From positions 8,345 to 72,344 of the forward strand of contig CAYMHI010000001.1 in the NCBI GenBank assembly GCA_964390265.1: a stretch of 64,000 nt of DNA. Reading direction: 5' to 3'. The notes below the pieces were generated by a model, which had not been told where the DNA came from, ran no database searches, and saw only the letters and a program-made list of their open reading frames with translations. This DNA is from an uncultured Candidatus Saccharibacteria bacterium (GTDB lineage Bacteria; Patescibacteriota; Saccharimonadia; CAILAD01; BJGX01). This document shows positions 8,675 through 31,789 of the stretch, piece by piece (position 1 is the first letter of the stretch; each line of letters opens with the position of its first letter). Made by a program: the position numbers and the translations under genes.

Positions 8675-8705
8675 ATAAATAAGTAAGTAAGTAAGTAACT
8701 TGTTT

Positions 8706-8740: not shown

Positions 8741-8787
8741 TAGCTATAATTATGCTAGTATAAACAGGTTAAATTTAGTAAAATAAT

Positions 8788-8864
8788 GCGCCCTTAGCTC
8801 AGCTGGATAGAGCGTCTGGCTTCGGACCAGAAGGCCGGGGGTTCGAATCCCTCAGGGCGCACCA
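8788..8864 (+). tRNA. tRNA-Arg (TCG)
   Basis: GCGCCCTTAGCTCAGCTGGATAGAGCGTCTGGCTTCGGACCAGA...GGGCGCACCA. Anticodon UCG. Confidence 0.85.
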
Positions 8865-8917
8865 TATAATTGAGTCTTGGCTAAAAGCCAATGACACAAT
8901 TATAAAGTATGATTTGA

Positions 8918-8998
8918 TGAGAGACCCAGGGTTCGGTGCAGTAAAGCGCGCAGTGTCAAAACAAATTAATTTGGTTTTGACCAAGCACTTTACCTTAA
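8918..8998 (+). ncRNA. Conserved element of about 80 nt, copy A. Candidate structured RNA or miniature inserted element.
   Basis: It is paralogous to 10735-10815. It shares the gatga.aga...ggttcggtg...gcgcag...CAAAAC-hairpin-GTTTTG...agcac pattern. Confidence 0.35.
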
Positions 8999-9012
8999 GA
9001 GGCGTAGCCGCT

Positions 9013-9030
9013 ATCCCTCAGGGCGCACCA
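9013..9030 (+). repeat. 18-nt direct repeat of the tRNA-Arg(TCG) 3' end (atccctcagggcgcacca). It looks like an att-like target duplication.
   Basis: Exact copy of positions 8847-8864, located 148 bp downstream. Confidence 0.7.
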
Positions 9031-9212
9031 CGTTATATTATGTTAGACGATATATTCTAGATGTTAGAATAAAATTAAAACTAAATTAATTAATCTTCTA
9101 GCAAATTGAATAAGCTTGCTTGTTCAATTGAAGAGGAGAATGACTTGCGAACGGTGAAAGTAATTATTTACAATAATTTCTGCAACAATCAGTAATCGTT
9201 CGACGACGACGA

Positions 9213-9288
9213 GGGTCTGTAGCTCAATTGGCAGAGCAGTTGCCTCTTAAGCAATTGGTTGTGGGTTCGAGTCCCACCGGACCCACCA
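9213..9288 (+). tRNA. tRNA-Lys (CTT)
   Basis: GGGTCTGTAGCTCAATTGGCAGAGCAGTTGCCTCTTAAGCAAT...GGACCCACCA. Anticodon CUU. Confidence 0.8.
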
Positions 9289-9374
9289 AGAAAGTATCTC
9301 AGCGAATGCTGGGATTTTTTCTTGGTAAAACATTAATTTAAAAAAAGCCTACCAAATAGGTAGGCAGAGATGAA

Positions 9375-10421: not shown

Positions 10422-10616
10422 TGTGCAGGTTGAAAAATAACCAGTTTATTGGTATGGTTAGTAGCGTGATATAAGATTATTCTTATTTCTTTTCCCATCT
10501 ACAGTTCGTGAAACAATAGAATAGTTGTTTAGCGAACTGAGAGGAGAAATAATGCGAAAGTTATAGAATTAAATGTAATAATATTTAATTTGCCAATTGA
10601 AGCATTATTTGGACGA

Positions 10617-10693
10617 CGGGGTGTGGCGCAGTTGGCTAGCGCGCTTGGTTTGGGACCAAGAGGTCGAAGGTTCGAGTCCTTTCACCCCGACCA
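10617..10693 (+). tRNA. tRNA-Pro (TGG)
   Basis: CGGGGTGTGGCGCAGTTGGCTAGCGCGCTTGGTTTGGGACCAAG...CACCCCGACCA. Anticodon UGG. Confidence 0.85.
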
Positions 10694-10895: not shown

Positions 10896-13589
10896 ATGGC
10901 AAACAAAAAAGACATTTTAATTAACTCACTACTTACTTTAGGTATACTTGTTGGCTTATTGGCGATTTATGCTGGTTTTAAGATGCACCCAGCTCAGCCA
11001 GCTCATGCCGCAACAACATACACAGTTACCAACGGTAATAATGCTGGTGCTGGTTCGTTGCGCCAAGCGATCACCGATGCCAATGCTAATCCTGGCGCTG
11101 ATATTATTGTTTTTAATGGAGCCCTTGTTATCCAGCCCACTAGCTCATTACCATCAATTACCGACCCGGTAGAAATAAATGGCTACACCGGCTCGCCCGG
11201 CGGTGCCACAGCCAACTCTGCAGCCAGCCCCAACCCATTCAATGGCACACTCACCGTTGAGCTCGATGGTCAGTTGGCGGCTGGTAGCGTACTTGGTTTA
11301 GGTTTTGAATCAGGCTCAGAGGGTTCATCGGTACGTGGGCTGGTGATTTATAATTTTTCTTTTAATGCTATTCAAGTAGCTCCTGGTTTTACTGGTAGCG
11401 GCCTAACCATAGCCGGTAACTACATTGGCACCAATGCAGCCGGTACTGTCGGCCAGGGCACTACGCTTAGCTCTGGCATTGGCCTGTTTGGTACCGGCGC
11501 ATCAAACATTACAGTCGGTGGCACAAACCCAGCAGATAGGAACATAATCTCTGGCAATGCTGGGGGGATTGGAGGCGGGGCAAACAGCAATGCTACCATA
11601 CAGGGCAATTATATTGGCTTAGCTGCCGATGGGACTACTGCCTTAGCAAATGCGGGTGGTGGCATTGTTTTTTATGCCGATACTACCAATGCAACCATTG
11701 GGGGCGCCACTACCTCGGCAGCTAATGTAATATCTGGCAATACATCGGGCTATGGCATATCTATTACGACTGCCGATGTCAACCACAATACTATAGCCGG
11801 TAACTTCATTGGCACTGATTACACAGGCGCTGTTGCCCGTGGTAATGCCAATGGCGGTATATTTATTGGCAGTGGTTCTGCATCTAATACTGTTGGTGGT
11901 ACTACGACCGGCGCTCGAAACCTTATCTCTGGCAATTCTAGTGCGGGTATATTTATTAATAGCGGAGGTACAAGCAACACCGTAGAAGGCAACTACATTG
12001 GTACCGATATAACTGGTGCTACAGCCCTAGCAAATGGCACAGGGGTAAGTATTTTAGGTGGGTCTAGTGGCAACACTATTGGCGGGGCAGATACCACTAC
12101 ACGCAATATTATTTCCGGTAACGGTGGTATGGGTTTGAGTATAGACACAAGTAATAGCAACACAGTAGCAAGTAACTACATTGGTGTTGATGTAACTGGT
12201 ACGGCTGACTTAGGTAATGGCGGTATTGGTGTAGCTATAAATAACTCAGCAAGTAGTAACACTATTGGCGGTACCACTGCTAGTGAACGCAACGTTATTT
12301 CTGGAAACGCAGATAATGGAGTGTACATATCTGGCACTGGCACAAATAATACAATCCTAGGTAATTATCTTGGTACCAATGCGAGTGGCTCAGCCGCAAT
12401 ACCCAATGATCAAAATGGCTTGTTTTATTTGGCAACAGGTACTGGCAATGTTCTGGGTGGACTTGCTGAAGGGTCTAGAAATATTCTTTCGGGTAATTCC
12501 AATTTTGGGGTGATATGTAGTAGTGGTGCCAACTTGAGTATTCAAGGAAATTATGTGGGGTTGAGTGCTGATGGCGCTACAACAATACCCAATGTTGGTG
12601 CTGGTAACAGTGCTAACATTGCTTTGACAGGATGTTCAAACATGATTATCGGTGGTTCTGCTACTGGTGCACGCAATGTTATATCTGGCAGCCTAGGGGC
12701 TGGGATATTAATGATTGCTGGCGGGAATAATACGGTGCAAGGTAACTACATTGGTACCAAAACTAGCGGTGAAGTCCAAAGTGGGTTTGGTAATAGTACC
12801 GCTGGTATTATTATAGCTTCTGCTTCTACGAATAACTTAATAGGCGGTGTAAATAGTGGTGAAGGCAACATAATAGCCGGTAATGGCGCAGGTGTTGCAG
12901 TTGGTGATATAGGAGGTATATTCTTAGCACAAAATAACTCTATCTTAGGCAATAGTATTCATGACAATAGCAGTGGTCCCCTGAGTAGCTTAGGAATAGA
13001 TTTACTGGGTAACACAAATGATTTCGTTACGTGGTCTTCCATTGGCGTTACCCCCAACGATGCTGGTGACCCCGACGTTACCTCTAATGTACTCATGAAC
13101 TTCCCAGTCATTCAATCAGTTACTTCTACCAATGGACAAGCCACAATAACGTATGACTTAGATATCAACGATGCCGAGCCTGGCGCTACTGGCTACCGCG
13201 TAGAGTTCTTTGCCAACGACTCTGCTGACCCCAGTGGTCATGGCCAAGGCCAAACCTACTTGGGAAGCGACACCGTTGCTGGTGATGTGAATGGTAGAAG
13301 CGCCACTCTTACGCTCCCAGCTGGCGTGGATGGTTCTAAATATGTTTCTGCCACCACTACCATGACCGATGCTAGTGATGATGGTTTTGGCCACACCTCT
13401 GAGTTTGCTGCTGACGTACAAGCTACTCTAGTGCCGGTATCTCCAACACCAACCCCAAGTCCAGCTGCCAATGTGTTGGCCACTACGGGCCTTAATCAAA
13501 ATAGAAGTAAATTAATTCTCGCAGCTATCGCACTGGTATTACTGGGTGGTACTGGGCTATACGTTGCTCGCCGTCAAAAACGAACTTAG
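10896..13589 (+). CDS. Large surface protein with right-handed parallel beta-helix repeats and a C-terminal LAxTG sortase sorting signal
   Basis: N-terminal signal/TM. Dozens of Gly/Asn/Thr-rich repeats with N.ISGN motifs. PT-rich linker (VSPTPTPSP). LATTG, a hydrophobic stretch and an RRQKRT tail. Confidence 0.8.
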   Translation: MANKKDILINSLLTLGILVGLLAIYAGFKMHPAQPAHAATTYTVTNGNNAGAGSLRQAITDANANPGADIIVFNGALVIQPTSSLPSITDPVEINGYTGSPGGATANSAASPNPFNGTLTVELDGQLAAGSVLGLGFESGSEGSSVRGLVIYNFSFNAIQVAPGFTGSGLTIAGNYIGTNAAGTVGQGTTLSSGIGLFGTGASNITVGGTNPADRNIISGNAGGIGGGANSNATIQGNYIGLAADGTTALANAGGGIVFYADTTNATIGGATTSAANVISGNTSGYGISITTADVNHNTIAGNFIGTDYTGAVARGNANGGIFIGSGSASNTVGGTTTGARNLISGNSSAGIFINSGGTSNTVEGNYIGTDITGATALANGTGVSILGGSSGNTIGGADTTTRNIISGNGGMGLSIDTSNSNTVASNYIGVDVTGTADLGNGGIGVAINNSASSNTIGGTTASERNVISGNADNGVYISGTGTNNTILGNYLGTNASGSAAIPNDQNGLFYLATGTGNVLGGLAEGSRNILSGNSNFGVICSSGANLSIQGNYVGLSADGATTIPNVGAGNSANIALTGCSNMIIGGSATGARNVISGSLGAGILMIAGGNNTVQGNYIGTKTSGEVQSGFGNSTAGIIIASASTNNLIGGVNSGEGNIIAGNGAGVAVGDIGGIFLAQNNSILGNSIHDNSSGPLSSLGIDLLGNTNDFVTWSSIGVTPNDAGDPDVTSNVLMNFPVIQSVTSTNGQATITYDLDINDAEPGATGYRVEFFANDSADPSGHGQGQTYLGSDTVAGDVNGRSATLTLPAGVDGSKYVSATTTMTDASDDGFGHTSEFAADVQATLVPVSPTPTPSPAANVLATTGLNQNRSKLILAAIALVLLGGTGLYVARRQKRT

Positions 13590-20037: not shown

Positions 20038-21066
20038 ATGAACCCTGACAAGAAAGGTAATAAAGTGGGAAGCACTGTGCTTTCAGGCATACGCGCAACA
20101 GGCCGGATGCATTTTGGGAATTTCGTAGGTGCAGTAGACAACTTTGTACGCTACCAAGCCAACCCAGAAAATACATGTATGTATTTCGTAGCTGACTTGC
20201 ATACGCTAACAACTCTTGAAGATCCAGAGGAACTTAGAAGAAATTTGGTTGAGATGGTAAAGGACTATTTGGCCGCGGGCCTTGATCCTGACAAATCAAT
20301 CATCTATGCTCAGTCAAGCATTCCAGAAATTCCTGAGTTGATGTTGCTCCTGGGTATGTTTCAACCTTTAGGCGAGCTACAACTAATCCCTACCTACAAA
20401 GATTTGGTGAAGAATAATCCCGACAGGATTACTCATGGCCTACTTTCTTACCCGGTGCTAATGGCGGCTGATATTTTGGGGCCCCAAGCCAACCTTGTCC
20501 CGGTCGGTAGCGACCAAAGTCCAAACGTAGAGCTTGCTCGCGATCTTGCGGTGAGGTTCAATAATCGATTTGGCACAACTTTTGCTGTGCCCGAAATGAT
20601 GAAAGAAATGGTAAAGGTACCTGGGCTGGATGGTCATAAGATGGGGAAGTCTTCCTCAGACAACGCTATCGGTATTGGCGATACTGCAGTAGAAATTCGC
20701 AGTAAATATCTCAAAAGAGGTATTACAGACACCAATAAAGCTCGTAAGAATGACCCTGGAGATCCATATAACGGATGTAAGTCGGTATATGCTGTACATG
20801 AGATGGTGACTGAGGGGGAGCGTGAAACTCGTACCATTGCCAATCTGTGCCGTAGTGGGCAAATTGGCTGCGTAGAATGTAAAAATATGTTGGTTGATGG
20901 TATTGCCGCAATTCTAGAACCATTCCAGCAGCGTAGAGCTGAGCTCGATAATCAGAACGACTACGTAACAGATGTTCTAGTAGAAGGTGGAAATGCTGCA
21001 CGAGCAGTAATTGCCCAAACGGTAGAAGATGTGCGTACAAAAATGGGGATCGTTAGATATGTCTAG
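20038..21066 (+). CDS. trpS: Tryptophanyl-tRNA synthetase with a Cys4 (probable 4Fe-4S) motif
   Basis: HFGN (HIGH-like) and KMGKS motifs and class I Trp/Tyr family length. Its C-x23-C-x6-C-x2-C motif is close to the Thermotoga TrpRS iron-sulfur motif C-x22-C-x6-C-x2-C. Confidence 0.85.
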   Translation: MNPDKKGNKVGSTVLSGIRATGRMHFGNFVGAVDNFVRYQANPENTCMYFVADLHTLTTLEDPEELRRNLVEMVKDYLAAGLDPDKSIIYAQSSIPEIPELMLLLGMFQPLGELQLIPTYKDLVKNNPDRITHGLLSYPVLMAADILGPQANLVPVGSDQSPNVELARDLAVRFNNRFGTTFAVPEMMKEMVKVPGLDGHKMGKSSSDNAIGIGDTAVEIRSKYLKRGITDTNKARKNDPGDPYNGCKSVYAVHEMVTEGERETRTIANLCRSGQIGCVECKNMLVDGIAAILEPFQQRRAELDNQNDYVTDVLVEGGNAARAVIAQTVEDVRTKMGIVRYV

Positions 21067-22228
21067 TCAAAACACTGAAATTAATTGGCGTGCCAAACTG
21101 TTACAAACAGGTGCAGATTTAGCCGTACTAGACTCACTACTTGTGGGTATTTATCTAAAAAGAGTTGAAGTTGCTCATAGAGTAATTCAGGCCAAGGTAG
21201 GTATAGCATTACAAGAAGGTGTTCAAGACGAACTTCCTTATGGGCCGCAAATATTCGCGCCCGATAGAGAAGACATGCGTCTAGACGTGGTAGCAGAATT
21301 GGCCAGAACGTATGGAGTTAACCCTAATTTTGCCAGAGCGATGGAGTATTGGTTGATAGATGAGGGCTGCAAGGTGCAGGCTGATTTTTTGCAGACAGGC
21401 AGAGTACGTCTTGAGCCAGCAACTCAAGACGAGATGCGCAGAAATCTCTTAGAGCTCACTGCACAAGTAGCTGATACATACGATGAAAGCTACGACGGTC
21501 TTTATCCGGCGACTCATGAGTACTTGCGCTATGAGAGCGATGTGTTGCATGCTTTGCTGTCTCAATTACCAAGTCGCCATTTGGCACTAGACTTGGGTTG
21601 TGCGACCGCTGGATTCACCCTAAAATACGCCGACAAGTTTGAAGATGTTGTAGCTGTAGATATTAGTCCAGATATGTGCAGAGTAGCTTCCGATAAAGTT
21701 GAGCATGCAGCTTCAAATATCACTGTCATCCAAGGAGATATTGAGTCAGATGCCTTTTGGGATCAGATTGCAAATAACTCTGTGTGTCTAGTGACTATGT
21801 CTTTTGGTACAGCCAGCGATGTAAGCGATATTGGCTACGTCATTCGGCAGATAGATAGAGTGTTACGTCGAGGCGGCAAAGCGTTACTTTCTTTCTACAA
21901 CAGAGATGCATTGGTCTATAGTTTTGACTTTCTACCTTGGCGAGCCTCGTTGGCTGCCGTGTTAGACCCTGGCCTTAAGACGCTGACCGTAAATACCACC
22001 TATGTCTTGTCGGCAAATGCATATTCTCCAGAAGAGATTTACGATATGAGAATGCCAAACTCGATTCACATCAAAACACTAACCACATTTCCGACACTAC
22101 TGCCAGTAGTGCCACCAGAGACGTGTAGTAACCCAGTGGTAGAAGAACGATTCTTGAAACTGGACCTTGAACGTGCTGCTGGAGGCGGCGAAGACGGTGC
22201 ATACATAGTATGTGTATTGTCTAAATAG
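21060..22228 (+). CDS. Two-domain protein with an unknown N-domain and a class I SAM-dependent methyltransferase domain. It is translationally coupled to trpS.
   Basis: ATGTCTAG overlap with the trpS stop. Motif I is LDLGCATAGFT and the post-I Asp is VAVDIS. Confidence 0.7.
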
Positions 22229-23109: not shown

Positions 23110-24519
23110 ATGAAATCAAACGAATTTGAATATTTACTACGCAGCAATACAAGTAAGAAAACAATTGCAACTCGCAAAGACGATTTTGCTCAGTGGTACC
23201 AAGATGTTATAAGCGTTGCCGACTTGGCCGAGAATGGCCCTAGCAAAGGCAGTATGATTATTAAGCCTTATGGATATGCAATTTGGCAAAACATTCAGGC
23301 TGAGCTTGATAAGCGAATTAAAGCAGTGGGCGTTCCGAATATGTATTTTCCGTTGCTTATACCAGATGGTTTATTGCAAAAAGAAGCTAGCCACATTGAG
23401 GGTTTTGCACCCGAGGTTGCAGTTGTAACACACGCTGGCGGTAAAGAGCTAGAAGAAAAACTCATTGTGCGCCCCACTAGCGAAACTATAATGTACGATA
23501 GTTTTTCGCGCTGGATACAAAGTTATCGCGACTTACCACTGCTTACCAATCAATGGGCCAATGTAGTGCGTTGGGAGCTGCGCCCAAGATTATTTTTACG
23601 TAGCACAGAGTTTTTGTGGCAAGAGGGCCACACAGCGCATGCTTCTGCGCAAGAAGCCGATGATTTTGCCAAAAAAATATTAGAGCTCTACAAAGACGTA
23701 GCCGAGAATGTTTTGGCTATTGCTACTGTGGCTGGAGAAAAAACTGAAGCTGAGAGATTTGCAGGTGCAGCCAAAACTTACACCTTAGAGCCAATGATGC
23801 AAGACGGTAAAGCGCTGCAGTTTGCTACCTCGCACAATCTGGGCGATAACTTTGCCAAAGTATTTGATATCAAATATTCTGATGAGAACGGAAATCAAAA
23901 AGCAGTTTGGCAAACAAGTTGGGGTATGAGTACGCGCTCAATTGGCGGTCTAATAATGAGCCATAGCGACGACAAGGGTCTGGTATTACCACCCAATATT
24001 GCGCCTCTAAAAGTTGTTATTACTACAGTTGGGCCATTAGATAATGATGTAGTGAAAAAAGCTAATGCAATTACTGAAGATATTGAACAGACCACTTTGG
24101 TAGATGCGCGCGAAATAAGTCCTGGTGAAAAATTCTATGCTCACGAAAAACGCGGAGTACCAATTAGAGTAGAAATTGGTCCACGCGATATCAAAGAAAA
24201 CCAAGCCATATTGGTGTTAAGAGATACGGGTGAAAAAATTACTGTAGCACTAAGTGATTTAACCAAAGAAGTAACTTCACAACTTGCAGCTATGCAGAAT
24301 CGTTTATTTAGCGCTACTCAAGAAAGGCTCAAACAAAATACTGTCGTAGCCAAAGACGAAGCCGAAGCGATTGAAGCCGTAAAAAATGATAAATTTGCCC
24401 GCGTAAGTTTTAGGGTTGATACTACTACCGAAGAGCGGCTAAAAAAAGATCACGGTATCACGGTACGTTGTTACCCTTTCGATAGTGAGGGTTCAACAAT
24501 TCTTGCCAAGACTTATTAG
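23110..24519 (+). CDS. proS: Prolyl-tRNA synthetase, archaeal/eukaryotic type
   Basis: Class II motifs, no INS editing domain, a C-terminal zinc-binding domain, and 469 aa. Confidence 0.85.
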   Translation: MKSNEFEYLLRSNTSKKTIATRKDDFAQWYQDVISVADLAENGPSKGSMIIKPYGYAIWQNIQAELDKRIKAVGVPNMYFPLLIPDGLLQKEASHIEGFAPEVAVVTHAGGKELEEKLIVRPTSETIMYDSFSRWIQSYRDLPLLTNQWANVVRWELRPRLFLRSTEFLWQEGHTAHASAQEADDFAKKILELYKDVAENVLAIATVAGEKTEAERFAGAAKTYTLEPMMQDGKALQFATSHNLGDNFAKVFDIKYSDENGNQKAVWQTSWGMSTRSIGGLIMSHSDDKGLVLPPNIAPLKVVITTVGPLDNDVVKKANAITEDIEQTTLVDAREISPGEKFYAHEKRGVPIRVEIGPRDIKENQAILVLRDTGEKITVALSDLTKEVTSQLAAMQNRLFSATQERLKQNTVVAKDEAEAIEAVKNDKFARVSFRVDTTTEERLKKDHGITVRCYPFDSEGSTILAKTY

Positions 24520-24524: not shown

Positions 24525-24815
24525 ATGAGTAAGAACTTTATTAAATTAAAAGAAGACTTTGTTTGTGAGAAGTGTGGGCAAAAGGTTGAAGGTACTGGTT
24601 ATACCAACCACTGTCCAAATTGTTTATGGTCGCGTCACGTCGATATACAGCCCGGCGATAGAGCAAGTGAGTGTTGTGGCATGATGCGTCCTAGCCTAGA
24701 ATACGTAAAAGGTAGTGAGTACACACTCAAACATACTTGCGTAAAATGCGGGCACGCAAAGATTAATAAGGCTAGCAAAAACGATGATATTAATAAGATA
24801 ATTGAACTAAAATAG
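24525..24815 (+). CDS. RNHCP-domain zinc-ribbon protein
   Basis: YTNHCPNCLWSRH plus CEKCG and CVKCGH Cys pairs. Confidence 0.6.
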   Translation: MSKNFIKLKEDFVCEKCGQKVEGTGYTNHCPNCLWSRHVDIQPGDRASECCGMMRPSLEYVKGSEYTLKHTCVKCGHAKINKASKNDDINKIIELK

Positions 24816-24837: not shown

Positions 24838-26124
24838 ATGAAACACACGGTTGAAATATTACAGCTTAAAGGCGGCAGTAAATTTTTATTAGTAAATGCC
24901 CCCGGCGCCTCGGGTTTTTTGATGAGTACTTTTGTTCGAGGTGGTACCAAGTATACTCCAAAAGACAAATTTGAAATTGCACACCTACTAGAACATTTGG
25001 CCTTTAATGGTACCAGTCAGCTACCAAGCAAAATGGAGTTTGCCTACGAGGTAGAAAAAGACGGCGCCTACACTAATGCCACAACCTCAGACAACACCAT
25101 TAATTATATATATGAATCTTCGATTAAAGAGTATAAGCGCATAGTCGATATTGCCTGTGGTCAGCTAAGCTCGCCTGTTTTTAATCAAAAAGACTTAGAG
25201 AGCGAAAAAGAAGTTATAAAAAGCGAACTTTCGCGCAAACTTACTACAGACAGATCGCGCTGTGGTTATAATGGCGTCTACTTAAAGCTTGCCAAACATT
25301 CTTTACCAATTTCTAAGCGAATAGAAACTCTTCAAAATATTAATCTGCAGGATATTAAGAACTATCACAAAAAATATCATGTACTAAAAAATTTAACAAT
25401 CATTGTAGCAGGAGACTTCACTACTAATTCTAAAAAAGATTTAATAGATAAGCTAAACAACAATTTGGCTAGCATGCCTGTAGGCCTAGAAACGCCCTAT
25501 AAAAATACTATAAATTTGTCGGCAGTAAAAACTATTAGTGTTCAAAAACCTAAGTTTGATGGCCAAACCAACATGAGTTTTGACTTATTGCAGCCCAAGT
25601 ATGATATGTCTGTAGATGCAGCTATGCGGGTATTGAGAATAATGTATGGTGTGGGGGAGTTCTCAAGATTACACGACAAAGCTAGATCGGCTGGGTTGAG
25701 TTATGGAGTTTCGGTAGGTTATAGCCTAACCAAAGAGATAAGTACATTTGGCTTCTCGGATCAAACAGAAGACGCCAAGGCTTTTGCCCTGTATGAACTC
25801 TGCTTGCGCGAGCTCAACGCCATACTTAACGGTAATTTTACTCAAAAAGAATTTGATAGAGCAGTGGGTTTTATTCGTGGTCGTTTTGAACGCAGCTATG
25901 ATAGAGCTGAAGAGTTGGGTTATTACTATGAAGATATTTTTATAGATGGCGATGAGTTAATTGGGCCTGATGAATTTGTGGGCTTAATAAACAAACTCAA
26001 ACCAGCCGACATTGTGGCACTAAATAAAACCTTTGTTAAAAAAGGAAGCTGGATACTTTCGCTAGTTGGTAACAACATTAATAAGTCGGCTTATAAAAAA
26101 GTAACTGAAAAATATTTTGGTTGA
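24838..26124 (+). CDS. M16-family (pitrilysin-like) zinc peptidase
   Basis: HLLEHLAFNGT inverted zincin HxxEH motif. Confidence 0.75.
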   Translation: MKHTVEILQLKGGSKFLLVNAPGASGFLMSTFVRGGTKYTPKDKFEIAHLLEHLAFNGTSQLPSKMEFAYEVEKDGAYTNATTSDNTINYIYESSIKEYKRIVDIACGQLSSPVFNQKDLESEKEVIKSELSRKLTTDRSRCGYNGVYLKLAKHSLPISKRIETLQNINLQDIKNYHKKYHVLKNLTIIVAGDFTTNSKKDLIDKLNNNLASMPVGLETPYKNTINLSAVKTISVQKPKFDGQTNMSFDLLQPKYDMSVDAAMRVLRIMYGVGEFSRLHDKARSAGLSYGVSVGYSLTKEISTFGFSDQTEDAKAFALYELCLRELNAILNGNFTQKEFDRAVGFIRGRFERSYDRAEELGYYYEDIFIDGDELIGPDEFVGLINKLKPADIVALNKTFVKKGSWILSLVGNNINKSAYKKVTEKYFG

Positions 26125-26186
26125 ACAATATTTGAACAAATAGAAATTTCACATTTAAGCTTATTCAATCTATAATAAAGTTAACA

Positions 26187-27344
26187 ATGAAAGCTACAAA
26201 CAATATAAAACATGCAAGCGACCCATTTACCTATCAGTCCCTTGCTAAACTAAACTATAAAACTCCGTTTCTTATTATCGATACTGATAGACTGGCAAAA
26301 CGGTACAAGGAGTTTAATACATATTTAAAGAGAGTGAATTTGCACTATGCTGTTAAGTGCAACCCAGATATTGGTGTACTCAAGAAACTTAATGATTTGG
26401 GGTCGGGGTTTGAAGTTGCGTCTTACAATGAGTGTAGTGCGCTCGAAAATATTGGAGTAAATACTTCAAAAATAATTTATAGTGCACCAGTAAAACCAGC
26501 TGACGATATTAAAAAGGCGTACAAAGCCGGCGTGAGTAGATTTGCAGTTGATTGCTTTAGCGAAGTAGAAAAAGTGGCAAAAAATGCTCCTGGCTCAAAA
26601 GTATATGTGCGTGTTGCTGTGAGTGATTTAGGCTCTAAATGGCCACTTTCACAAAAATTTGGGGCTCCGCCACGCGAGGTAATTGAACTAATGGAGTATG
26701 CTAAGTCGCTGTGTTTACAAACGTATGGACTTACCTTTCATATCGGTTCACAATCTACCGAAACCAATAGCTGGGATTTTGCTCTTCAAACCATTGGAAA
26801 CTTAATGGATGAGCTTACTCAAAAGGGAATCAAAATAGAAATGGTTGATATCGGTGGTGGTTTCCCTGCCAAATATACCGAAGACGTACCAGAGCTTGAC
26901 GAAATTTCGTTGGTTATTAAAAAAGCTATTAAAAAACACTTACCATACGAAGTTAAGATTATTGCAGAACCAGGGCGCGGCTTGGTAGCCGAAGCTGGCT
27001 TAATTGTGTCTTCAGTATTGAGCCGGACTATAAGAGGCAATAAAAACTGGCTTTATTTAGATATTGGCGCTTACAATGGTCTGATAGAAACCACTTCAAC
27101 CCAGGGATCACTCGTTTACCCCATTAGATCATCAAAAGATAACTCTAAGGATGGTAAGTCTAAACTGAGTTATGTAATTACGGGTCCTACTTGTGATAGT
27201 CTCGACACTATGTTTGGAGGTGTACAGCTTGCAAAAAACCTCGCAATAGACGACCATATATATATTGGCTCAGCGGGTGCTTACACGTTGAGCTACGCAT
27301 CTTCATTTAATGGTTTTAAGCCACCAAAAGTCTACTATGTTTAA
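26187..27344 (+). CDS. Ornithine/lysine/arginine decarboxylase (fold-III PLP, eukaryotic-ODC-like)
   Basis: HYAVKCNPD (PLP-Lys motif), GGGFP and GPTCDSLD motifs. Confidence 0.8.
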   Translation: MKATNNIKHASDPFTYQSLAKLNYKTPFLIIDTDRLAKRYKEFNTYLKRVNLHYAVKCNPDIGVLKKLNDLGSGFEVASYNECSALENIGVNTSKIIYSAPVKPADDIKKAYKAGVSRFAVDCFSEVEKVAKNAPGSKVYVRVAVSDLGSKWPLSQKFGAPPREVIELMEYAKSLCLQTYGLTFHIGSQSTETNSWDFALQTIGNLMDELTQKGIKIEMVDIGGGFPAKYTEDVPELDEISLVIKKAIKKHLPYEVKIIAEPGRGLVAEAGLIVSSVLSRTIRGNKNWLYLDIGAYNGLIETTSTQGSLVYPIRSSKDNSKDGKSKLSYVITGPTCDSLDTMFGGVQLAKNLAIDDHIYIGSAGAYTLSYASSFNGFKPPKVYYV

Positions 27345-27352
27345 GGAGTGTC

Positions 27353-28573
27353 ATGAGTGAACCAAACGGCCTAGATGGCCAAGCTGAACCTACTGAAGAA
27401 CGTAAGGGATTAGAACCATTAGAACCAAAGCAGCCTAAGCAATTAGACTGGAGTGAATATCGCAAAATTGCCGACCAAAAAGCTATTGGTGTTCGAAAAG
27501 TTGGATTGCTAGATGAAAAGCAAGCTATACAGGCATTAAGTGATGAGCGCACTATTACCATACCGACCGAAATTGGCGATATACCAATCTTTACCCCTAT
27601 TGAATATGCCTCGGGTTTTGATGTCGATAGAGCTACTGGAATTGCCCGAAATCACACAATGGGGCAAGTTGAAGCACTTTATTACTTTTGTGTGCCACCA
27701 AATTTACTCGCGGAAGAAACTCACTACCAAATAATTGTTGACAACCTCAAGAGGCTTAGCAGTCATCAAGTAGGGATTTACTTTGATTTTGTCGAAAATG
27801 ATCCAAAGTCTAGAGATGAACTGTTGGCTCTCTTAAGCAAGACCGGGGTTGACTACAGCGAAATTGCTTTGCACGATGGCCGATCAGAACATGGCGATCG
27901 AGACGTATCTATTAATTTTTATAGATGCGTAACTTCGCGAACAGAAATGAAACCTACAGATCTCCCCAACATAGATATCTATGAAGCTTATACAAGGGCA
28001 TGTGAAATGGGTGAATTCGAATATATGCCAAGAGATGGAGCAGCAATACTAAAAGGTAGTGAGCTACAAGTTGATTTAGTTGAAAAGCTATGGGAGATAT
28101 ATCAAAATCGTTTTGAATGGCTTGGTGAGAATCATCCCATTTCAATGGAGGACGAGAAAGATCAATTTATCGAAGCACTAAAAGATAACAATACTACGCT
28201 TAGTATATTTTTTAAAGATGGTGAGCCAGTGTGCTGGACGTATTTCACAACCAACACAGAAGCTGAATACTGGCTCAATAAATCATTTATTCAAAAACAT
28301 ATTGAGCCTGGTACTGAACTACTATTCTTTCCAGGTATAGTTGCTAAAAAGATCGATGATATGGCTGGTTTTTCTGAACCTACGCTGAAGTTGGCTGCGC
28401 AAATGATTGGTCGTACTAGCCGAGACTATACAGTAATGTTTGAAAATACTGGTGTATCGGAGGAGTATATACCTAGGCTCGTCAAAGAATATGCCGATTC
28501 CTCTGAAACAATAACAGTAGATTTACCAGTTAAGATAGATAACACTTTATATGGACTGGTAATAACCAACTAA
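27353..28573 (+). CDS. Hypothetical protein, probably co-transcribed with the decarboxylase
   Basis: 8-nt gap after the decarboxylase stop, followed by a bidirectional terminator. No recognisable motif. Confidence 0.5.
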   Translation: MSEPNGLDGQAEPTEERKGLEPLEPKQPKQLDWSEYRKIADQKAIGVRKVGLLDEKQAIQALSDERTITIPTEIGDIPIFTPIEYASGFDVDRATGIARNHTMGQVEALYYFCVPPNLLAEETHYQIIVDNLKRLSSHQVGIYFDFVENDPKSRDELLALLSKTGVDYSEIALHDGRSEHGDRDVSINFYRCVTSRTEMKPTDLPNIDIYEAYTRACEMGEFEYMPRDGAAILKGSELQVDLVEKLWEIYQNRFEWLGENHPISMEDEKDQFIEALKDNNTTLSIFFKDGEPVCWTYFTTNTEAEYWLNKSFIQKHIEPGTELLFFPGIVAKKIDDMAGFSEPTLKLAAQMIGRTSRDYTVMFENTGVSEEYIPRLVKEYADSSETITVDLPVKIDNTLYGLVITN

Positions 28574-28606
28574 TAGCCAAGGTTTACTTGGCTTTTTTAT
28601 ATATAA
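28572..28606. terminator. Bidirectional terminator
   Basis: agccaaggtttacttggct plus T7. Confidence 0.6.
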
Positions 28607-29516
28607 CTTTATATTTTTTTAAAAAGTCAGTGGGGTGTTTTCGTTCTTTACTAGTTCGGAGGCCCTGGATACCCAAATCTGGTTCAAAGTTCAATTTTGT
28701 AATATTATCCATCGCTAATTTTTTACATGCCTCTATAAATAAAAAGCTATGGATATGTTCGTACTTCATATTACCCTTAGTAAAATGACATGTTGCAAAA
28801 TCATCTCTACCAAGCTCGCAAATAAAAAATCCAATTGGCTTGTCCTTTTCTTTAATAATAAATCCCCACGGAGTAATGAAATTATCTGGTAAATAATGAA
28901 ACATCTTATTAATTGCAATAAACTCGTAGTCAAACTCCCTAGGGTCGGGTTTGGACTGGAGCCAGTCGTCAAAAATTATTTTGATGTCACGGTATGTTTC
29001 ACTATCAAATTTTGTAATTGGATATGTGCTAATCTTTTTACCGTAAGCTTCGTAAAAGTTGTTATACTCCCTACGGAGACCTTCCTTCTTATTGCCCGCC
29101 AAATCTACAAATTCGTCTGTAGAATAGATATAGTCAAAATCATCTCTAATGGGTTCAACATCAAAGACTTTGTCGATGTCAGTTATTGAGCTTTCTGGTA
29201 CATATCGTAAAAAATCATTATTTAAATGTTCTTGGCTATAATCAATTAATTTAGTTATAGTATCTTCTTTCAGGTTATCACCCAAGAAACTCAAAAAATG
29301 ATTTTTATCATCAGTATAATCTGTGAATTTAACTACTAAGTTATTATTTAGTTTCGAAACCTCCAGCTTGTTATCAGTGTTCCAGCAGTATAGGTTACCA
29401 AGTGAGTAGTCGTGATATGGTGGATACTTAGCTGTAAGTTCAATAATATCATCCCTCATCTCTAAAGATAATTTAGAGAAACTAGGGAAGTTTGGAATTG
29501 TATGTATTGCCGTCAT
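28584..29516 (-). CDS. DUF2156-like protein (MprF/LPG-synthase C-terminal domain fold, putative aminoacyl-tRNA-dependent transferase)
   Basis: The pattern SLGNLYCW...FLSFLGD...DYIYSTDEFVDLAGNKKEGLRREYNNF resembles the DUF2156 signature (lGdP, DYiY, L.G.k.k.lR...N.f). Confidence 0.45.
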   Translation of the reverse strand: MTAIHTIPNFPSFSKLSLEMRDDIIELTAKYPPYHDYSLGNLYCWNTDNKLEVSKLNNNLVVKFTDYTDDKNHFLSFLGDNLKEDTITKLIDYSQEHLNNDFLRYVPESSITDIDKVFDVEPIRDDFDYIYSTDEFVDLAGNKKEGLRREYNNFYEAYGKKISTYPITKFDSETYRDIKIIFDDWLQSKPDPREFDYEFIAINKMFHYLPDNFITPWGFIIKEKDKPIGFFICELGRDDFATCHFTKGNMKYEHIHSFLFIEACKKLAMDNITKLNFEPDLGIQGLRTSKERKHPTDFLKKYKVIYKKAK

Positions 29517-29581
29517 AATAAGTAATATAGTTATATAATAGCTTAAGAGTAACTTAGATTATATAATTAAAGCAAATCCTT

Positions 29582-31789
29582 ATGAACAACCTATACATAA
29601 TTCAATCGCTAGCATATCTACCAATTATTATCGGCATTAGTATTATTGGTATAATTGCCCTAATACGCCAAAAAGGCAAGGGCGTGGGTTATTTTGGCGT
29701 AATGTCAATCATGATCGCAATTTGGCTTACTTGGCAGTCGCTGGCTCAACTTAATATTGGTGCATATACAGACTTGATAATGTTACGTTTAGCTAGTGCT
29801 ACATCGGTATTTCTTGGTATGTTTTTTGTGCTTTTTATGCGCGATTACACAAATAAAACGAAGCGAAAAATTATTTTAATAGTTTACGGCGTATCCGCAT
29901 CAATCCTTTTCGTGCTAAATCTAACTAGTCTGGGAATTACCAATGTTACGGTTAATGAATCCGGCTTAACCATAAATGACGTAGGTATATTTTACTACGT
30001 CAGCCTAATGGTGGTTGTGGCGTTTTTTATTTACGGCTTTGTAATACTAATAATCGACACAAAAAAACGTGTTAAATCGGATCGAACAGCAAATTATTAT
30101 ATATTTATAGGTTTTGCTCAAGCAGTAATAATTACTGTTTTAACAACTACACTTTTGGCGCCATACCCTGCCTCCCAGATACTTATTCCAATTTCACTAT
30201 TTATCTTAACTCTGTTAACGGCCTTAGCAATTATAAGGCATAGACTTTTTGACATTCGCCTGGTTGCAGTCCGTGCGCTTACCTACCTTCTTTCTATAGG
30301 GCTGTTAGCTACAGTATATGCATTTATAGCATTTAACTTAGCAAATATATTTATAGAAAATTGGAGTGTAAGCCTTAAAGAATCTTTTTACGCCTTACTA
30401 GCAGTTATTTTAGCTCTTACATTTGCCCCAATTAAAAAATTCTTTGAGCGCGTTACAAATAGAATATTTTTTAGAGACCAGTACGACTCGCAAGCTCTAA
30501 TAAACAAAATTGGTCGTATACTAGCAAGCGAGATAGATCTCGACAAGGTTTCGCACCAAGTAATAAACGAGCTCTGCACTCAAATCAAAATAGAGAAAGC
30601 CGAGATAGTGGTGTTTGGCGAGAAACAACTATTTTATGAAAACAATGTTTTTAAATCTACCAAAGACAATATTGGTCAAAAAGAGTTGCGTAAGTTGGGC
30701 CGTACTATGTTAGTGCGCGACGATCAGCAATCGACTGAGCGTAAAGACTTAATGCAGAAATACGGAATAAGTGTTAGCTTAGCATTGCGTACCAGCGAGA
30801 GGTTTATTGGTTATCTACTTCTAAGCGACAAAAAAAGCGGTGACATATACAGCTCAGAAGACATTAATGTACTAAAAATAATTGGTAGCGAATTAAGTGT
30901 AGCTATTCAAAACGCCCTTAGCTATAAAGAAATACAACTATTTAACGAAACTTTGACAGAAAAAGTACGCCAACGCACCGCTCAGCTTAAGAGCGCAAAC
31001 GATCAGCTGCATTTACTCGACCAAGCCAAAGATGAATTTATATCTATGGCCTCTCATCAGTTGCGTACACCACTTACAACTGTAAAGGGCTATGCTAGTA
31101 TGTTAGACGAGGGCGACTTTGGTAAGCTCACTCGTGAACAGCGCGAAAAGGTTGAACTAACCCTTGATGGCGCCAATAGAATGGCTCGCCTCATAGACGA
31201 TCTTCTAAACGTAAGTAGAATGGATGCTAATAGGTTCTTTTTGGAAGTGACTGAGGTAGATATCGTTAAGGTAGTGGCAGAGGAGATACAGCAACTTCAG
31301 TCTATGGCCGAGAGTAAAAAAGTGGCTATTGAATATACGCCACCAAGTGAAAAAATACCAACCATACGTTTAGACGAAAACAAAACTCGCCAAGTAATAA
31401 TGAATTTGGTAGATAATGCAATTCACTACAGTCAGCCACCGCTTGGTGGTGGCGAAGCCAACGTTAGCCTAAAAGCTAATGATAAAAACATTGAATTTGT
31501 AGTGCGCGATAACGGAATAGGCGTACCAGCCGATGTGCAAAAAAAACTATTTACCAAGATGTTTAGAGCCAATAATGCCAAGGCTGCTCGACCCGATGGA
31601 ACGGGCCTAGGTCTATATTTGGTAAAAAGAGTTATTGAGGATGAAGGTGGCGAGATAATTTTTGAGAGTGTTGAGGGCAAGGGTAGTACCTTTGGTTTTA
31701 AGTTGCCGCTAGCCGGAGTGCCAAAAGAAGTAGAAGAGAAAAGTCGTAAAATTGCTACCAAGGTAGCCGCTACTCAGAAATCAGAATAA
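29582..31789 (+). CDS. Sensor histidine kinase with a multi-TM N-terminal sensor domain. No adjacent response regulator.
   Basis: Eight or more TM helices, then the HisKA H-box ASHQLRTPLTTVKGY and HATPase N/G boxes (DNAIHYS, DNGIGV, GTGLGL). Confidence 0.85.
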   Translation: MNNLYIIQSLAYLPIIIGISIIGIIALIRQKGKGVGYFGVMSIMIAIWLTWQSLAQLNIGAYTDLIMLRLASATSVFLGMFFVLFMRDYTNKTKRKIILIVYGVSASILFVLNLTSLGITNVTVNESGLTINDVGIFYYVSLMVVVAFFIYGFVILIIDTKKRVKSDRTANYYIFIGFAQAVIITVLTTTLLAPYPASQILIPISLFILTLLTALAIIRHRLFDIRLVAVRALTYLLSIGLLATVYAFIAFNLANIFIENWSVSLKESFYALLAVILALTFAPIKKFFERVTNRIFFRDQYDSQALINKIGRILASEIDLDKVSHQVINELCTQIKIEKAEIVVFGEKQLFYENNVFKSTKDNIGQKELRKLGRTMLVRDDQQSTERKDLMQKYGISVSLALRTSERFIGYLLLSDKKSGDIYSSEDINVLKIIGSELSVAIQNALSYKEIQLFNETLTEKVRQRTAQLKSANDQLHLLDQAKDEFISMASHQLRTPLTTVKGYASMLDEGDFGKLTREQREKVELTLDGANRMARLIDDLLNVSRMDANRFFLEVTEVDIVKVVAEEIQQLQSMAESKKVAIEYTPPSEKIPTIRLDENKTRQVIMNLVDNAIHYSQPPLGGGEANVSLKANDKNIEFVVRDNGIGVPADVQKKLFTKMFRANNAKAARPDGTGLGLYLVKRVIEDEGGEIIFESVEGKGSTFGFKLPLAGVPKEVEEKSRKIATKVAATQKSE

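Follow-up and report, generated by a model that had tools for sequence, protein, structure and literature searches.

A conserved Saccharibacteria gene module of a decarboxylase, two tandem GNAT proteins and a sensor kinase, with a probable role in making an acylated or aminoacylated polyamine

Genes and candidate transcription signals of the locus

The window is the whole 64,000-nt stretch of Saccharibacteria DNA analyzed here, and all coordinates are window positions. The genes under study code for an ODC-like PLP enzyme, a 406-aa protein that we call UNK (a working name for this protein and its family), a DUF2156 protein and a sensor histidine kinase, and are accompanied by candidate transcription signals:

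26148–26176, + strand: promoter-like site TTCACA-17-TATAAT, 11/12 consensus match, 10 nt upstream of the decarboxylase start codon
26187–27344, + strand: PLP ODC-like decarboxylase gene, 385 aa
27353–28573, + strand: UNK gene, 406 aa, 8-nt gap after the decarboxylase gene
28575–28593, + strand: terminator-like hairpin with a 7 bp stem (AGCCAAG-GTTTA-CTTGGCT), then TTTTTT
28584–29516, − strand: DUF2156 / LPG_synthase_C gene, 310 aa, convergent to the UNK gene
29558–29586, − strand: promoter-like site TTCATA-17-TATAAT, 10/12, consensus match only
29582–31789, + strand: sensor histidine kinase gene, 735 aa, from its Pfam domains

The first three genes lie at the positions and on the strands given in a preliminary description of this DNA, including the 8-nt gap, and the motifs quoted there are all present (HYAVKCN, GPTCDSLD, LGNLYCW, SFLGD and DYIYSTDEFVDLAGNKKEGLRREYNNF). 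The promoter-like sites across the region total the shuffle expectation, and only the position and quality of the one preceding the decarboxylase gene (26148–26176) are suggestive of a real promoter; the 29558–29586 site lies between the divergent DUF2156 and kinase genes, which are 65 nt apart. Just 10 nt separate the convergent UNK and DUF2156 genes, and the hairpin takes in the end of the latter, namely its stop codon and the codons just before it. Because its T-run is on the + strand, with none on the − strand, this hairpin looks like a terminator of the decarboxylase–UNK operon and is not demonstrably bidirectional, as the preliminary description had proposed it to be; terminator-like hairpins in the region number 5 against 2.2 ± 1.4 by chance, one such hairpin being within chance expectation.

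Conservation of the module and its signaling components

UNK and DUF2156 are adjacent in 20 of the 20 distinct UNK lineages recovered (L numbers below), an association far beyond chance. Synteny of all three genes, which had been set beforehand as the test that could refute a link between them, is found in many genomes. The module, which combines a basic-amino-acid decarboxylase, UNK, a BT_3689-type DUF2156 protein and a HisKA_7TM-GAF kinase, is mostly Saccharibacteria-specific, its approximately 20 lineages being mostly Saccharibacteria MAGs at 22–50% identity. It appears to be absent from the cultured Saccharibacterium S. epibionticum. A few module copies are high-GC (actinobacterial-like). 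Gene order and orientation vary: ODC>UNK><DUF2156 (the window and L004), ODC>DUF2156>UNK>HK (L006), <ODC UNK><DUF2156 (L010), UNK>ODC><DUF2156 (L011) and UNK><DUF2156<ODC (L012). Coupling is tight, with genes often overlapping or 0–10 nt apart (coupled gene ends: L006, 2736/2743 and 3689/3691; L022, 7702/7718; L023, 2230/2232; L021, 587/589; L012, 2758/2765). The neighbors of the module in other lineages are receiver, Mur ligase, MurL and FolD genes rather than aaRS or tRNA genes. The density of tRNA and aaRS genes in the window, from which aminoacyl-tRNA dependence had been argued, is thus not conserved with the module and provides no evidence for such dependence.

The 735-aa protein is predicted to be a HisKA_7TM membrane sensor kinase, based on matches to HisKA_7TM (PF16927, 3.5e-15), HisKA (PF00512, 1.2e-18), HATPase_c (PF02518, 3.5e-25) and, weakly, GAF, with about 8 hydrophobic segments by hydropathy in residues 10–287. 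Its orthologues (34–63% identity) adjoin the DUF2156/UNK pair in L001, L004, L006, L010, L015–L020 and L023–L026, and such a kinase stands beside the pair in almost all contigs that extend far enough. Most lineages also have orphan receivers, usually one or two each, which are CheY-like proteins of 123 aa without an output domain and show 70–90% identity as opposed to 22–50% for the fast-evolving enzymes beside them; no receiver lies within 64 kb in the window's own lineage. We count the 7TM kinase among the module's components, along with orphan receivers in most lineages.

Decarboxylases of three folds in one slot

The 385-aa protein matches Orn_Arg_deC_N (PF02784, 3e-59) and Orn_DAP_Arg_deC (PF00278, 2.6e-13), with the Selenomonas Lys/Orn decarboxylase (1.7e-57) and T. 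brucei ODC (TbODC, 4.5e-55) as its best solved relatives. Alignment to 1f3t and 5gjm, with TbODC K69, H197, G235–237, E274/R277, C360–D361 and Y389 as reference residues, shows the catalytic Lys (YAVKCN), His (FHIGS), GGG and E..R (EPGR) to be intact in 12/12 module orthologues, all of which likewise keep C-D (GPTCD) and GAYT/FNGF. The two Pfam matches, together with these residues, thus bear out the earlier assignment to the fold-III PLP decarboxylases, and we predict an enzyme of the ornithine/lysine decarboxylase type. Its identification as LysA was rejected: the TIGR01048 score is 193.4 bits against an equivalog cut-off of 297.9, and the protein has GPTCDS rather than CES, the LysA active-site motif. 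In TbODC, the substrate binds through its distal amine to an acidic residue, D332; every module orthologue has I/V/M and no acidic residue at this position, with an invariant Asp one residue before it in the motif WLYLD[IVM]G..[QN]GL[IM]E (12 module orthologues). We place the enzyme in a subfamily that is specific to the module and has an altered specificity loop; given the missing acid, the substrate may not be free ornithine or lysine.

The slot directly upstream of UNK is occupied by the PLP ODC-like gene in 12 lineages. In L022, L023 and L024 it instead holds a pyruvoyl PvlArgDC, with the Ser-Ser self-cleavage site conserved relative to the M. jannaschii PvlArgDC, and in L014 and L018 an AdoMet_dc-like pyruvoyl enzyme (E 2.7e-21 and 4.8e-24). 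AdoMet_dc enzymes normally act on SAM. Both pyruvoyl types miss their NCBIfam equivalog cut-offs (62 against 107 for the PvlArgDC-like, 36 and 65 against 75.65 for the AdoMet_dc-like proteins), which leaves their substrates uncertain. A variant lacking UNK (L029) reads AdoMet_dc>EamA>DUF2156>7TM+HK, an EamA transporter taking the UNK position, and two lineages (L020 and L025/26) have no adjacent decarboxylase. Since three unrelated decarboxylase folds fill one slot, an amine (agmatine, putrescine or cadaverine) forms an integral part of the module; the involvement of an amine, raised in the preliminary description as a possible polyamine, is thereby supported.

A stand-alone DUF2156 protein

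The 310-aa protein matches PF09924 (LPG_synthase_C) with an E-value of 4.7e-26 (92 bits against a cut-off of 27.5) over model positions 3–297 of 298. We assign it as a full-length stand-alone DUF2156 protein with a predicted tandem-GNAT fold, belonging to the subgroup of BT_3689 (2HQY), its only close solved relative, which it resembles over its full length in both sequence and structure. After 2HQY, its nearest fold neighbors are all aminoacyl-tRNA transferases (MprF-C/L-PGS, Sbb17 and FemX), in agreement with the family and fold first proposed for it. Of these, FemX comes from another sequence family, FemAB. The family of the 310-aa protein is remote from aaPGS in sequence, no MprF chain matching its profile at E≤1. 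The protein has a single Pfam domain and no hydrophobic segment by hydropathy, and is predicted to be soluble; we reject its classification as MprF proper as it lacks a fused N-terminal membrane flippase domain.

Two elements of the fold were compared with regard to the donor. The aminoacyl-tRNA-binding element of DUF2156 enzymes is a positively charged α(+) inter-GNAT helix (PMC7334510). The corresponding helix of the window's protein (~141–161, LAGNKKEGLRREYNNFYEAYGKK) has a net charge of +3, and in the orthologues the charge ranges from 0 to +5, being positive in most, with an Arg conserved in nearly all. As 2HQY also has an inter-GNAT helix, its presence is no proof of tRNA use. The second element, the β4-α3 loop, is the canonical position of the CoA pyrophosphate in GNATs. 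In GNAT II of the window's protein it reads MKYEHI (249–254), without Gly, which is also absent from the loop in most module orthologues; BT_3689/2HQY has 'DGAY' there. 2HQY is reported to contain acetyl-CoA, and the H. pylori DUF2156 homologue HPB8_1270 behaves as a lysine/protein acetyltransferase (PMC10700544). The donor of the module's DUF2156 proteins may hence be either aminoacyl-tRNA or acetyl-CoA.

UNK, a predicted second tandem GNAT

The 406-aa partner had been described as free of recognizable motifs. This stands insofar as the window's protein matches no Pfam or NCBIfam family and no PDB sequence; its predicted structure, however, is confident (pLDDT 85) and displays the GNAT fold β1-α1-α2-β2-4-α3-β5-α4-β6 twice:

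residues 1–30: disordered acidic tail
residues ~31–205: GNAT-like domain 1
residues ~206–406: conserved GNAT domain 2

A profile of the family likewise finds no match among PDB sequences, and GNAT sequence models run against 93 family members give 3 weak Acetyltransf_6 and 2 weak Acetyltransf_1 matches (best E 0.006). The family comprises 433 clusters at 50% identity, has no database model and is characterized by the invariant motifs GENHPISMED, FFPGIV and FENTNxSExYIP. On this model, UNK is a second tandem GNAT of the locus, from an undescribed family. Its best structural matches are MshD, MAB_4324, the C. acetobutylicum GlcN N-acetyltransferase and VipF, at low TM-scores of 0.3–0.43; as FemX and MprF are also among them, structure does not tell the donors apart. 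It shares the two-GNAT architecture of MshD and other acetyl-CoA tandem GNATs, with the conserved, presumably active domain C-terminal, but has no detectable sequence similarity to MshD-type GNATs and differs in its very acidic composition, its additional length of about 100 aa, its own invariant motifs and, in some members, a ~220-aa N-terminal extension. The hydrophobic segments of that extension are marginal (Kyte-Doolittle 1.4–1.8); the window's UNK has no TM domain by hydropathy.

UNK has a net charge of −31, and the family pI is about 4.5 (4.35–5.0), whereas the neighboring proteins are basic. Such acidity suits a polycationic substrate and speaks against tRNA binding. A FemXAB/DUF2156-type aminoacyl-tRNA transferase was considered and rejected for UNK, which lacks a positive inter-domain helix or basic tRNA surface and specific similarity to those families. 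Its β4-α3 loop is Gly-rich, with the consensus xxxGxGYS after FFPGIV, and was compared with the CoA-binding motif Q/R-x-x-G-x-G/A that follows β4 in GNATs. This GxGYS consensus and a near-invariant Y372 at the start of α4 recall CoA-dependent GNATs, although the window's own loop (KKIDDMAGFS, a single Gly), while compatible with the CoA-binding motif, is not canonical.

A proposed pathway and its alternatives

We propose, at a probability of about 0.5, that the decarboxylase makes an amine which the two GNATs N-acylate or aminoacylate, and that the kinase controls or senses this chemistry; the product is probably an acylated or aminoacylated polyamine, so far uncharacterized. Family membership and intact catalytic residues suggest that the decarboxylase would convert ornithine, lysine or arginine to a primary amine (putrescine, cadaverine or agmatine). 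The two cytoplasmic tandem GNATs might then act on it in turn, forming amide bonds. In the version we prefer, the DUF2156 enzyme would use aminoacyl-tRNA to aminoacylate the amine, as the tRNA-dependent amide-forming transferases FemX, Sbb17 and VlmA act on lipid II, on streptothrisamine and in valanimycin, respectively. We know of no case in which one of these acts on a polyamine or agmatine or has a decarboxylase and a second tandem GNAT as partners. The acidic UNK would bind the cationic intermediate and, with a CoA thioester as donor, add an acyl or acetyl cap, comparable to MshD, which in mycothiol synthesis caps the amino group installed by the preceding Cys-adding, aaRS-related ligation. 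The resulting N-acyl- or N-aminoacyl-polyamine/agmatine may be exported or used at the envelope, as hinted by the hydrophobic extension of long UNK forms and the EamA transporter in the UNK position of L029. Given their strict adjacency, the 7TM kinase and receivers may control expression of the genes or detect the product. The loss of the acid at the D332 position, the pyruvoyl enzymes scoring below cut-off and the lineages without a decarboxylase count against this explanation. A decarboxylase and N-acyltransferase pair also occurs in hydroxamate siderophore pathways (DesA/DesC), but there the acyltransferase has a single GNAT domain, and the module has no monooxygenase or NIS synthetase.

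The reported properties of 2HQY and HPB8_1270 mean that both GNATs could be plain acetyltransferases. They would then mono- or di-acetylate a diamine or agmatine without tRNA, for detoxification, export or pH homeostasis, with the kinase answering polyamine or acid stress. The extreme acidity of UNK fits this reading, in which the pair would work like the polyamine N-acetyltransferases SpeG, SSAT and PaiA; these, like Dpa (8a9n), have a single GNAT domain, as against two tandem GNATs and a dedicated kinase in the module. Two dedicated, always-paired and fast-diverging tandem GNATs exceed the needs of simple acetylation, and the DUF2156 proteins differ from BT_3689 and HPB8_1270 in their fixed decarboxylase/UNK/kinase context and the replaced glycine of 'DGAY'. 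They also retain the positive helix, and their nearest folds after 2HQY are confined to aminoacyl-tRNA transferases. We regard acetylation as a less likely though serious alternative.

Envelope remodeling in the manner of MprF appears improbable. Here DUF2156 would aminoacylate a membrane lipid (PG, DAG or host-derived) from aminoacyl-tRNA, UNK would be an accessory acyltransferase or membrane-targeting partner, the kinase an envelope-stress regulator, as GraRS is for mprF, and the decarboxylase merely a co-regulated polyamine or acid-resistance gene. The cell-wall-type kinase adjacent in nearly all lineages, the Mur ligase and MurL nearby in several, and the N-terminal extension of long UNK forms are consistent with this, as are PF09924 membership and the closeness of the fold to L-PGS and MprF after 2HQY. 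The MprF/aaPGS C-terminal domain shares with the 310-aa protein the full-length Pfam match, double-GNAT fold and positive inter-domain helix (PMC7334510, PMC8913301), and the fungal ErgS, free-standing like the 310-aa protein (ErdS is AspRS-fused), aminoacylates a lipid (PMC8913301). Yet the module's DUF2156 protein has no flippase or TM domain, nor has the window's UNK, the hydrophobicity of long UNK forms is marginal, no MprF chain was matched at E≤1, and the genes linked with it encode a decarboxylase and a further tandem GNAT, not lipid enzymes; a slot refilled three times by unrelated decarboxylases is hard to square with an incidental amine. Less probable again is a signal-synthase/receptor cassette, a special case of our preferred explanation that gives the product a specific role: an acylated amine would diffuse and be detected by the 7TM-GAF kinase and CheY-like receivers, in quorum or host sensing suited to an episymbiotic lifestyle. 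The near-universal kinase, the slow divergence of the output-less receivers beside fast-evolving enzymes and the EamA exporter in L029 favor it, but adjacency does not separate 'regulates' from 'senses', the similarity to LasI and FeeM is no greater than for generic GNATs, and the window's own lineage has no receiver nearby.

Implications

Saccharibacteria are tiny bacteria that live on other bacteria, and Patescibacteria genomes are tiny; as far as we are aware, Saccharibacteria and other Patescibacteria are unable to synthesize amino acids, nucleotides or lipids. A module of five genes that is retained throughout the class, in genomes with so few biosyntheses, likely matters for their lifestyle. 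On a more speculative and rather unlikely extension of our preferred reading, Saccharibacteria would divert aminoacyl-tRNA to agmatine or putrescine, UNK would then N-acylate the conjugate to an N-acyl-aminoacyl-polyamine, and the kinase and receivers would sense it, controlling the interaction with the actinobacterial host. The product could be, for example, a mycothiol-like N-acetyl-Cys-polyamine thiol or a diffusible signal, and the high-GC copies would stem from symbiont and host having exchanged the module.

We know of no previous description of a link between amine production and DUF2156 chemistry. The decarboxylase, UNK and DUF2156 are three small soluble proteins, making the hypothesis directly testable either way. 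If DUF2156 uses acetyl-CoA as donor, the module would help define the role of the large, uncharacterized BT_3689-type branch of the family; if it uses aminoacyl-tRNA on a polyamine, tRNA-dependent aminoacylation would extend beyond lipids, peptidoglycan and a few antibiotics.

Organization of the module in the window

The module combines a decarboxylase of the ornithine decarboxylase type (ODC), a 406-aa protein (UNK), a stand-alone DUF2156 protein and a HisKA_7TM sensor kinase (HK).

Genes and signals of the module in the window
26187-27344, + strand: decarboxylase gene (385 aa; ORF call)
27353-28573, + strand: UNK gene (406 aa), starting 8 nt after the decarboxylase gene
28584-29516, - strand: DUF2156 gene (310 aa), convergent with the UNK gene
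29582-31789, + strand: sensor kinase gene, HisKA_7TM-(GAF)-HisKA-HATPase_c by Pfam
28575-28593, + strand: hairpin with a 7-bp stem that overlaps the DUF2156 stop codon; only the + strand has a T-run after it

An ORF check recovered the three enzyme ORFs and all the quoted peptide motifs exactly as in the preliminary description. The convergent UNK and DUF2156 genes are separated by only 10 nt, and the hairpin between them is a plausible terminator for the plus-strand operon; given its one-sided T-run, it is not clearly the bidirectional terminator that had been proposed. Promoter-like sites are present just upstream of the decarboxylase gene (11/12 consensus match) and in the 65-nt region between the divergent DUF2156 and kinase genes (10/12 match). 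Convergent 3′ ends that overlap or lie ≤10 nt apart are seen both here (28574-28583) and in three related loci from other contigs (L024:6527-6530, L025:9821-9824 and L027:2800-2822). Thus, the UNK and DUF2156 transcripts must overlap or share a terminator, and antisense effects between them are possible.

Conservation and variation of the gene neighborhood

Searching 5.8 billion proteins by word index recovered only 11 relatives of UNK, none of them named or with a Pfam domain, and an exhaustive profile search yielded 433 UNK clusters at 50% identity, 168 of them at E<1e-30. In all of the approximately 20 distinct UNK lineages, whose UNK proteins are 29–53% identical to that of the window, a DUF2156 gene is the immediate neighbor, with the ODC gene mostly nearby; the three-gene synteny that the preliminary description had singled out for comparison across genomes is thus widespread. 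The eight genome-collection matches all come from Saccharibacteria/Saccharimonadia MAGs or unclassified MAGs labelled ‘uncultured bacterium’, and the nearest genome sharing the synteny is a MAG of an ‘uncultured Candidatus Saccharibacteria’.

Gene orders in the window and related loci (arrowheads give direction)
Window, L001, L004, L015-17, L019 and L027: ODC> UNK> <DUF2156 HK>
L006-9: ODC> DUF2156> UNK> HK> (8-nt overlap, then 1-nt gap)
L010: <ODC UNK> <DUF2156
L011: UNK> ODC> <DUF2156
L012 (63.6% GC): UNK> <DUF2156 <ODC
L021 (high-GC contig): DUF2156> UNK>, overlapping

Except in L012, all sufficiently long contigs have the HisKA_7TM kinase next in order. Identity to the window proteins is 41–78% for ODC, 34–63% for the kinase, 29–46% for UNK and 22–42% for DUF2156, and the low values for the last two point to the two GNATs as the fastest-evolving parts of the module. 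In eleven lineages, one or two orphan 123-aa receivers are encoded divergently upstream (e.g., L004:3326-3697, L006:248-1247 and L022:4319-5177). These receivers show 70–90% identity across lineages in which the enzymes are only about 30% identical. None is found within the 64-kb window: in its lineage and in L001 the receivers have been lost or moved, and an M16 peptidase, an RNHCP protein and ProRS are encoded upstream instead.

Two copies, the trio of L012:1-6494 and the pair of L021:1-2294, lie on high-GC contigs, with L012 also encoding DUF397 and ECF-sigma neighbors. The L012 contig is probably actinobacterial, and these features suggest that the high-GC copies are actinobacterial and that the module may have passed between Saccharibacteria and the phylum of their hosts.

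Three unrelated decarboxylase folds at one position

Pfam bears out the assignment of the 385-aa protein as an ODC-like fold-III PLP decarboxylase, with both characteristic domains being detected (PF02784, E 3e-59, and PF00278). Its nearest solved relatives are the Selenomonas lysine/ornithine decarboxylase (E 1.7e-57) and Trypanosoma brucei ODC (E 4.5e-55). A diaminopimelate decarboxylase (LysA) identity was rejected, as it scores 193 bits against an equivalog cut-off of 298 and has the motif C-D. Relative to T. brucei ODC, the PLP lysine (YAVKCN), His197, the GGG loop, Glu274/Arg277 (EPGR), Cys360-Asp361 (GPTCD) and the GAYT/FNGF elements are retained in the window protein and in all 12 module-linked orthologues extracted. 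Hence, the sequence predicts that the enzyme is almost certainly active. One specificity determinant is altered, with the position of Asp332 being Ile, Val or Met in the module decarboxylases; an invariant Asp immediately precedes it and a conserved Glu lies downstream (WLYLD[IVM]G..[QN]GL[IM]E). The protein belongs to a distinct subfamily of ODC/LDC-type fold-III decarboxylases, with ornithine, lysine or arginine as candidate substrates.

In other lineages, the slot upstream of UNK is occupied by pyruvoyl enzymes. In L022, L023 and L024, all of which have a long form of UNK, it holds a homologue of pyruvoyl-dependent arginine decarboxylase (PvlArgDC; PF01862) with a conserved Ser-Ser self-cleavage site, the gene overlapping the UNK start in L022. 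In L014 and L018, it holds a small AdoMet_dc-family enzyme (PF02675; E 2.7e-21 and 4.8e-24), whose gene stops 5–7 nt short of UNK. An adjacent decarboxylase is missing only in L020 and L025/26.

Pyruvoyl enzyme genes of the related loci
PvlArgDC-like: L022:5504-6007, L023:1-411, L024:4084-4587
AdoMet_dc-like: L014:3482-3862, L018:5581-5964, L029:5692-6066

The last of these loci, L029, was reached via a 32%-identical DUF2156 protein and has the order receiver< AdoMet_dc> EamA transporter> DUF2156> 7TM protein> GAF-kinase, without UNK. In this locus (L029:5101-10479), the EamA transporter gene lies between the AdoMet_dc-like and DUF2156 genes, and the sensor function is divided among a 273-aa multi-TM protein, a protein of 101 aa and a GAF-HisKA kinase. 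The 273-aa protein was considered as a diverged UNK and rejected (hhalign probability 0.1%; multi-TM).

The recruitment of three unrelated folds to one position indicates that the formation of a primary amine, by decarboxylation of an amino acid, belongs to the function of the module. Arginine decarboxylases occur in all three families, as exemplified by the chlorella-virus ODC homologue (among the ODC matches), PvlArgDC itself and the crenarchaeal arginine decarboxylase, which is derived from AdoMet_dc. Agmatine is therefore the most economical common product. All the pyruvoyl enzymes of the slot score below the NCBIfam equivalog cut-offs and may thus form new substrate-specificity subfamilies; for this reason, putrescine or cadaverine (ODC-like) and decarboxylated SAM (AdoMet_dc-like) are retained as candidate products.

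UNK, an acidic protein with a predicted tandem-GNAT fold

The preliminary description found no recognizable motif in the 406-aa protein. This stands for sequence methods, with no annotation obtained from Pfam, NCBIfam, a phmmer search of the PDB or a family profile against the PDB, and none gained by running Pfam on 93 family members. It does not extend to structure: an AF2 model from a 12-sequence alignment (pLDDT 85, pTM 0.81) displays the secondary structure of two GNAT-like halves, for which Foldseek gives the best TM-scores to glucosamine N-acetyltransferase and MshD, with MprF and FemX among the matches. The model thus places UNK in the GNAT superfamily by fold only, as an undescribed family. 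A detectable paralogy with DUF2156 was rejected (hhalign against the DUF2156 profile, probability 1.6%).

The conserved residues are concentrated in the C-terminal GNAT: W247, LGENHPISMED in the α1-α2 loop, FFPGIV in the bulged β4, a Gly-containing loop, FENTNxSExYIP (β5-α4) with the near-invariant Y372, and Y400. The N-terminal half has few (Y36, G51, D64 and P78). The family is acidic throughout (pI 4.35–5.0; net charge -31 in the window protein) and stands among basic neighbors (ODC, the M16 peptidase and the kinase). We infer that so acidic a protein is more likely to bind a polycationic ligand than tRNA.

About 15% of the UNK matches listed are 560–650 aa long, with an additional N-terminal region of about 220 aa; a metagenome scan with these long forms recovered one locus.

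Long forms of UNK
Loci: L022:5973-7718, L023:416-2230, L024:4590-6530, L025:8001-9824
Proteins: P0136, P0102, P0147, P0153, P0179

The extension is Ala/Gly-rich, with conserved P..NE, E, G and R residues, and matches no family in Pfam or NCBIfam. Hydropathy reveals only 1–3 marginal TM segments in it; hence, it is not called with confidence as a membrane domain and may be a membrane anchor, a transporter-like domain or a soluble region.

The stand-alone DUF2156 protein

Pfam assigns the 310-aa protein to PF09924 (LPG_synthase_C, formerly DUF2156) by a full-length match (E 4.7e-26) that scores 92 bits where the cut-off is 27.5, in agreement with its earlier designation as a stand-alone DUF2156. 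Among solved proteins, the family profile has a single sequence match, BT_3689 (2HQY; E 5.9e-51), and matches no MprF chain. The AF2 model has a pLDDT of 93, and hydropathy detects no TM segment; hence, the protein is not an MprF. It is a PF09924 member of the BT_3689 branch.

The β4-α3 loop is the usual CoA-pyrophosphate loop; it reads ‘DGAY’ in BT_3689 and ‘MKYEHI’ in the window protein, and most module orthologues lack the Gly. This sequence difference weakly favors a non-CoA donor. The helix between the two GNATs, which has been proposed as the aminoacyl-tRNA-binding element of DUF2156 enzymes (PMC7334510), is positively charged, at +3 in the window protein and 0 to +5 across the orthologues, and contains a conserved Arg.

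Other genes of the window

The window encodes four aminoacyl-tRNA synthetases (HisRS, ProRS, MetRS and AlaRS) and eight tRNAs, a density that we estimate at about twice chance for a genome of about 1 Mb. This density had been taken to raise the possibility of an aminoacyl-tRNA-dependent modification. However, the neighborhood does not travel with the module, which is elsewhere flanked by receivers, a Mur ligase, MurL or glutamate racemase, and FolD; hence, it is no evidence for such a role.

Further features of the window
7256-10693, both strands: six tRNA genes (His, Arg-TCT, Gly-TCC, Arg-TCG, Lys-CTT, Pro-TGG) in 3.5 kb
21029-22228, + strand: 399-aa protein with a weak chorismate-mutase-type-II-like N-terminus (PF01817, E 2.8e-5, just below cut-off) and a class I SAM methyltransferase, an unusual pairing
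24525-24815, + strand: RNHCP zinc-ribbon gene
24838-26124, + strand: M16-family peptidase-like gene, directly downstream
10896-13589 (897 aa) and 5252-6574 (440 aa), + strand: no Pfam match at E<=1e-5

L001 retains the RNHCP/M16 pair, with identities of 63% and 88%. A 420-aa class-II synthetase-like gene in that locus (L001:3111-4373) is syntenic with the window ProRS (469 aa; 23110-24519). The best tblastn match between the two is only 24% identical (residues 119–384), and the adjacent AstE/AspA-like gene is on the opposite strand relative to the window, indicating local rearrangement or replacement.

A proposed pathway and its alternatives

Starting from the observed gene linkage, folds, residue conservation and charge, we propose a pathway whose every chemical step is inferred. 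The decarboxylase would make an amine, which the DUF2156 enzyme would acylate, with an aminoacyl group from aminoacyl-tRNA being favored and acetyl from acetyl-CoA the main alternative. The acidic UNK would then bind the cationic intermediate and attach another acyl group, taken from a CoA thioester. The product would be exported or used at the envelope, and the kinase and receivers would regulate or sense the process.

The choice of donor bears on a rival reading of the module as a system for pure polyamine acetylation. Acetyl-CoA is stated to be present in the 2HQY active site, and the Helicobacter pylori DUF2156 protein HPB8_1270 has been shown to be involved in lysine acetylation (PMC10700544); both are counter-arguments to an aminoacyl-tRNA donor, to be set against the altered β4-α3 loop. 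Another rival, MprF-like lipid aminoacylation, would make the decarboxylase incidental; the recurrent filling of the decarboxylase slot and the soluble character of the DUF2156 protein point elsewhere. A third rival, a signal-synthase/receptor cassette, is a special case of the proposed pathway in which the sensor kinase and receivers would detect the product. Another idea, polyamine attachment to peptidoglycan D-Glu (known from Selenomonas), was prompted by the Mur ligase, MurL and glutamate racemase genes near several copies and by the Selenomonas enzyme being the best ODC match. A GNAT would not suffice for amidating a carboxylate, which requires an ATP-dependent ligase, and there are no Mur genes beside the window copy; hence, we set this idea aside.

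We found no description of the module in the literature on DUF2156, 2HQY, Sbb17, HisKA_7TM or Saccharibacteria ODC/polyamine/agmatine. Neither a decarboxylase nor a DUF2156 gene is listed in the Tn-seq tables of S. epibionticum, a genetically tractable species that seems to lack the module. The module would combine GNAT- or tRNA-dependent acyl transfer to a biogenic amine with a new enzyme family and a dedicated sensor kinase. The gene association is robust and unexpected and, as it involves three small soluble proteins, directly testable.
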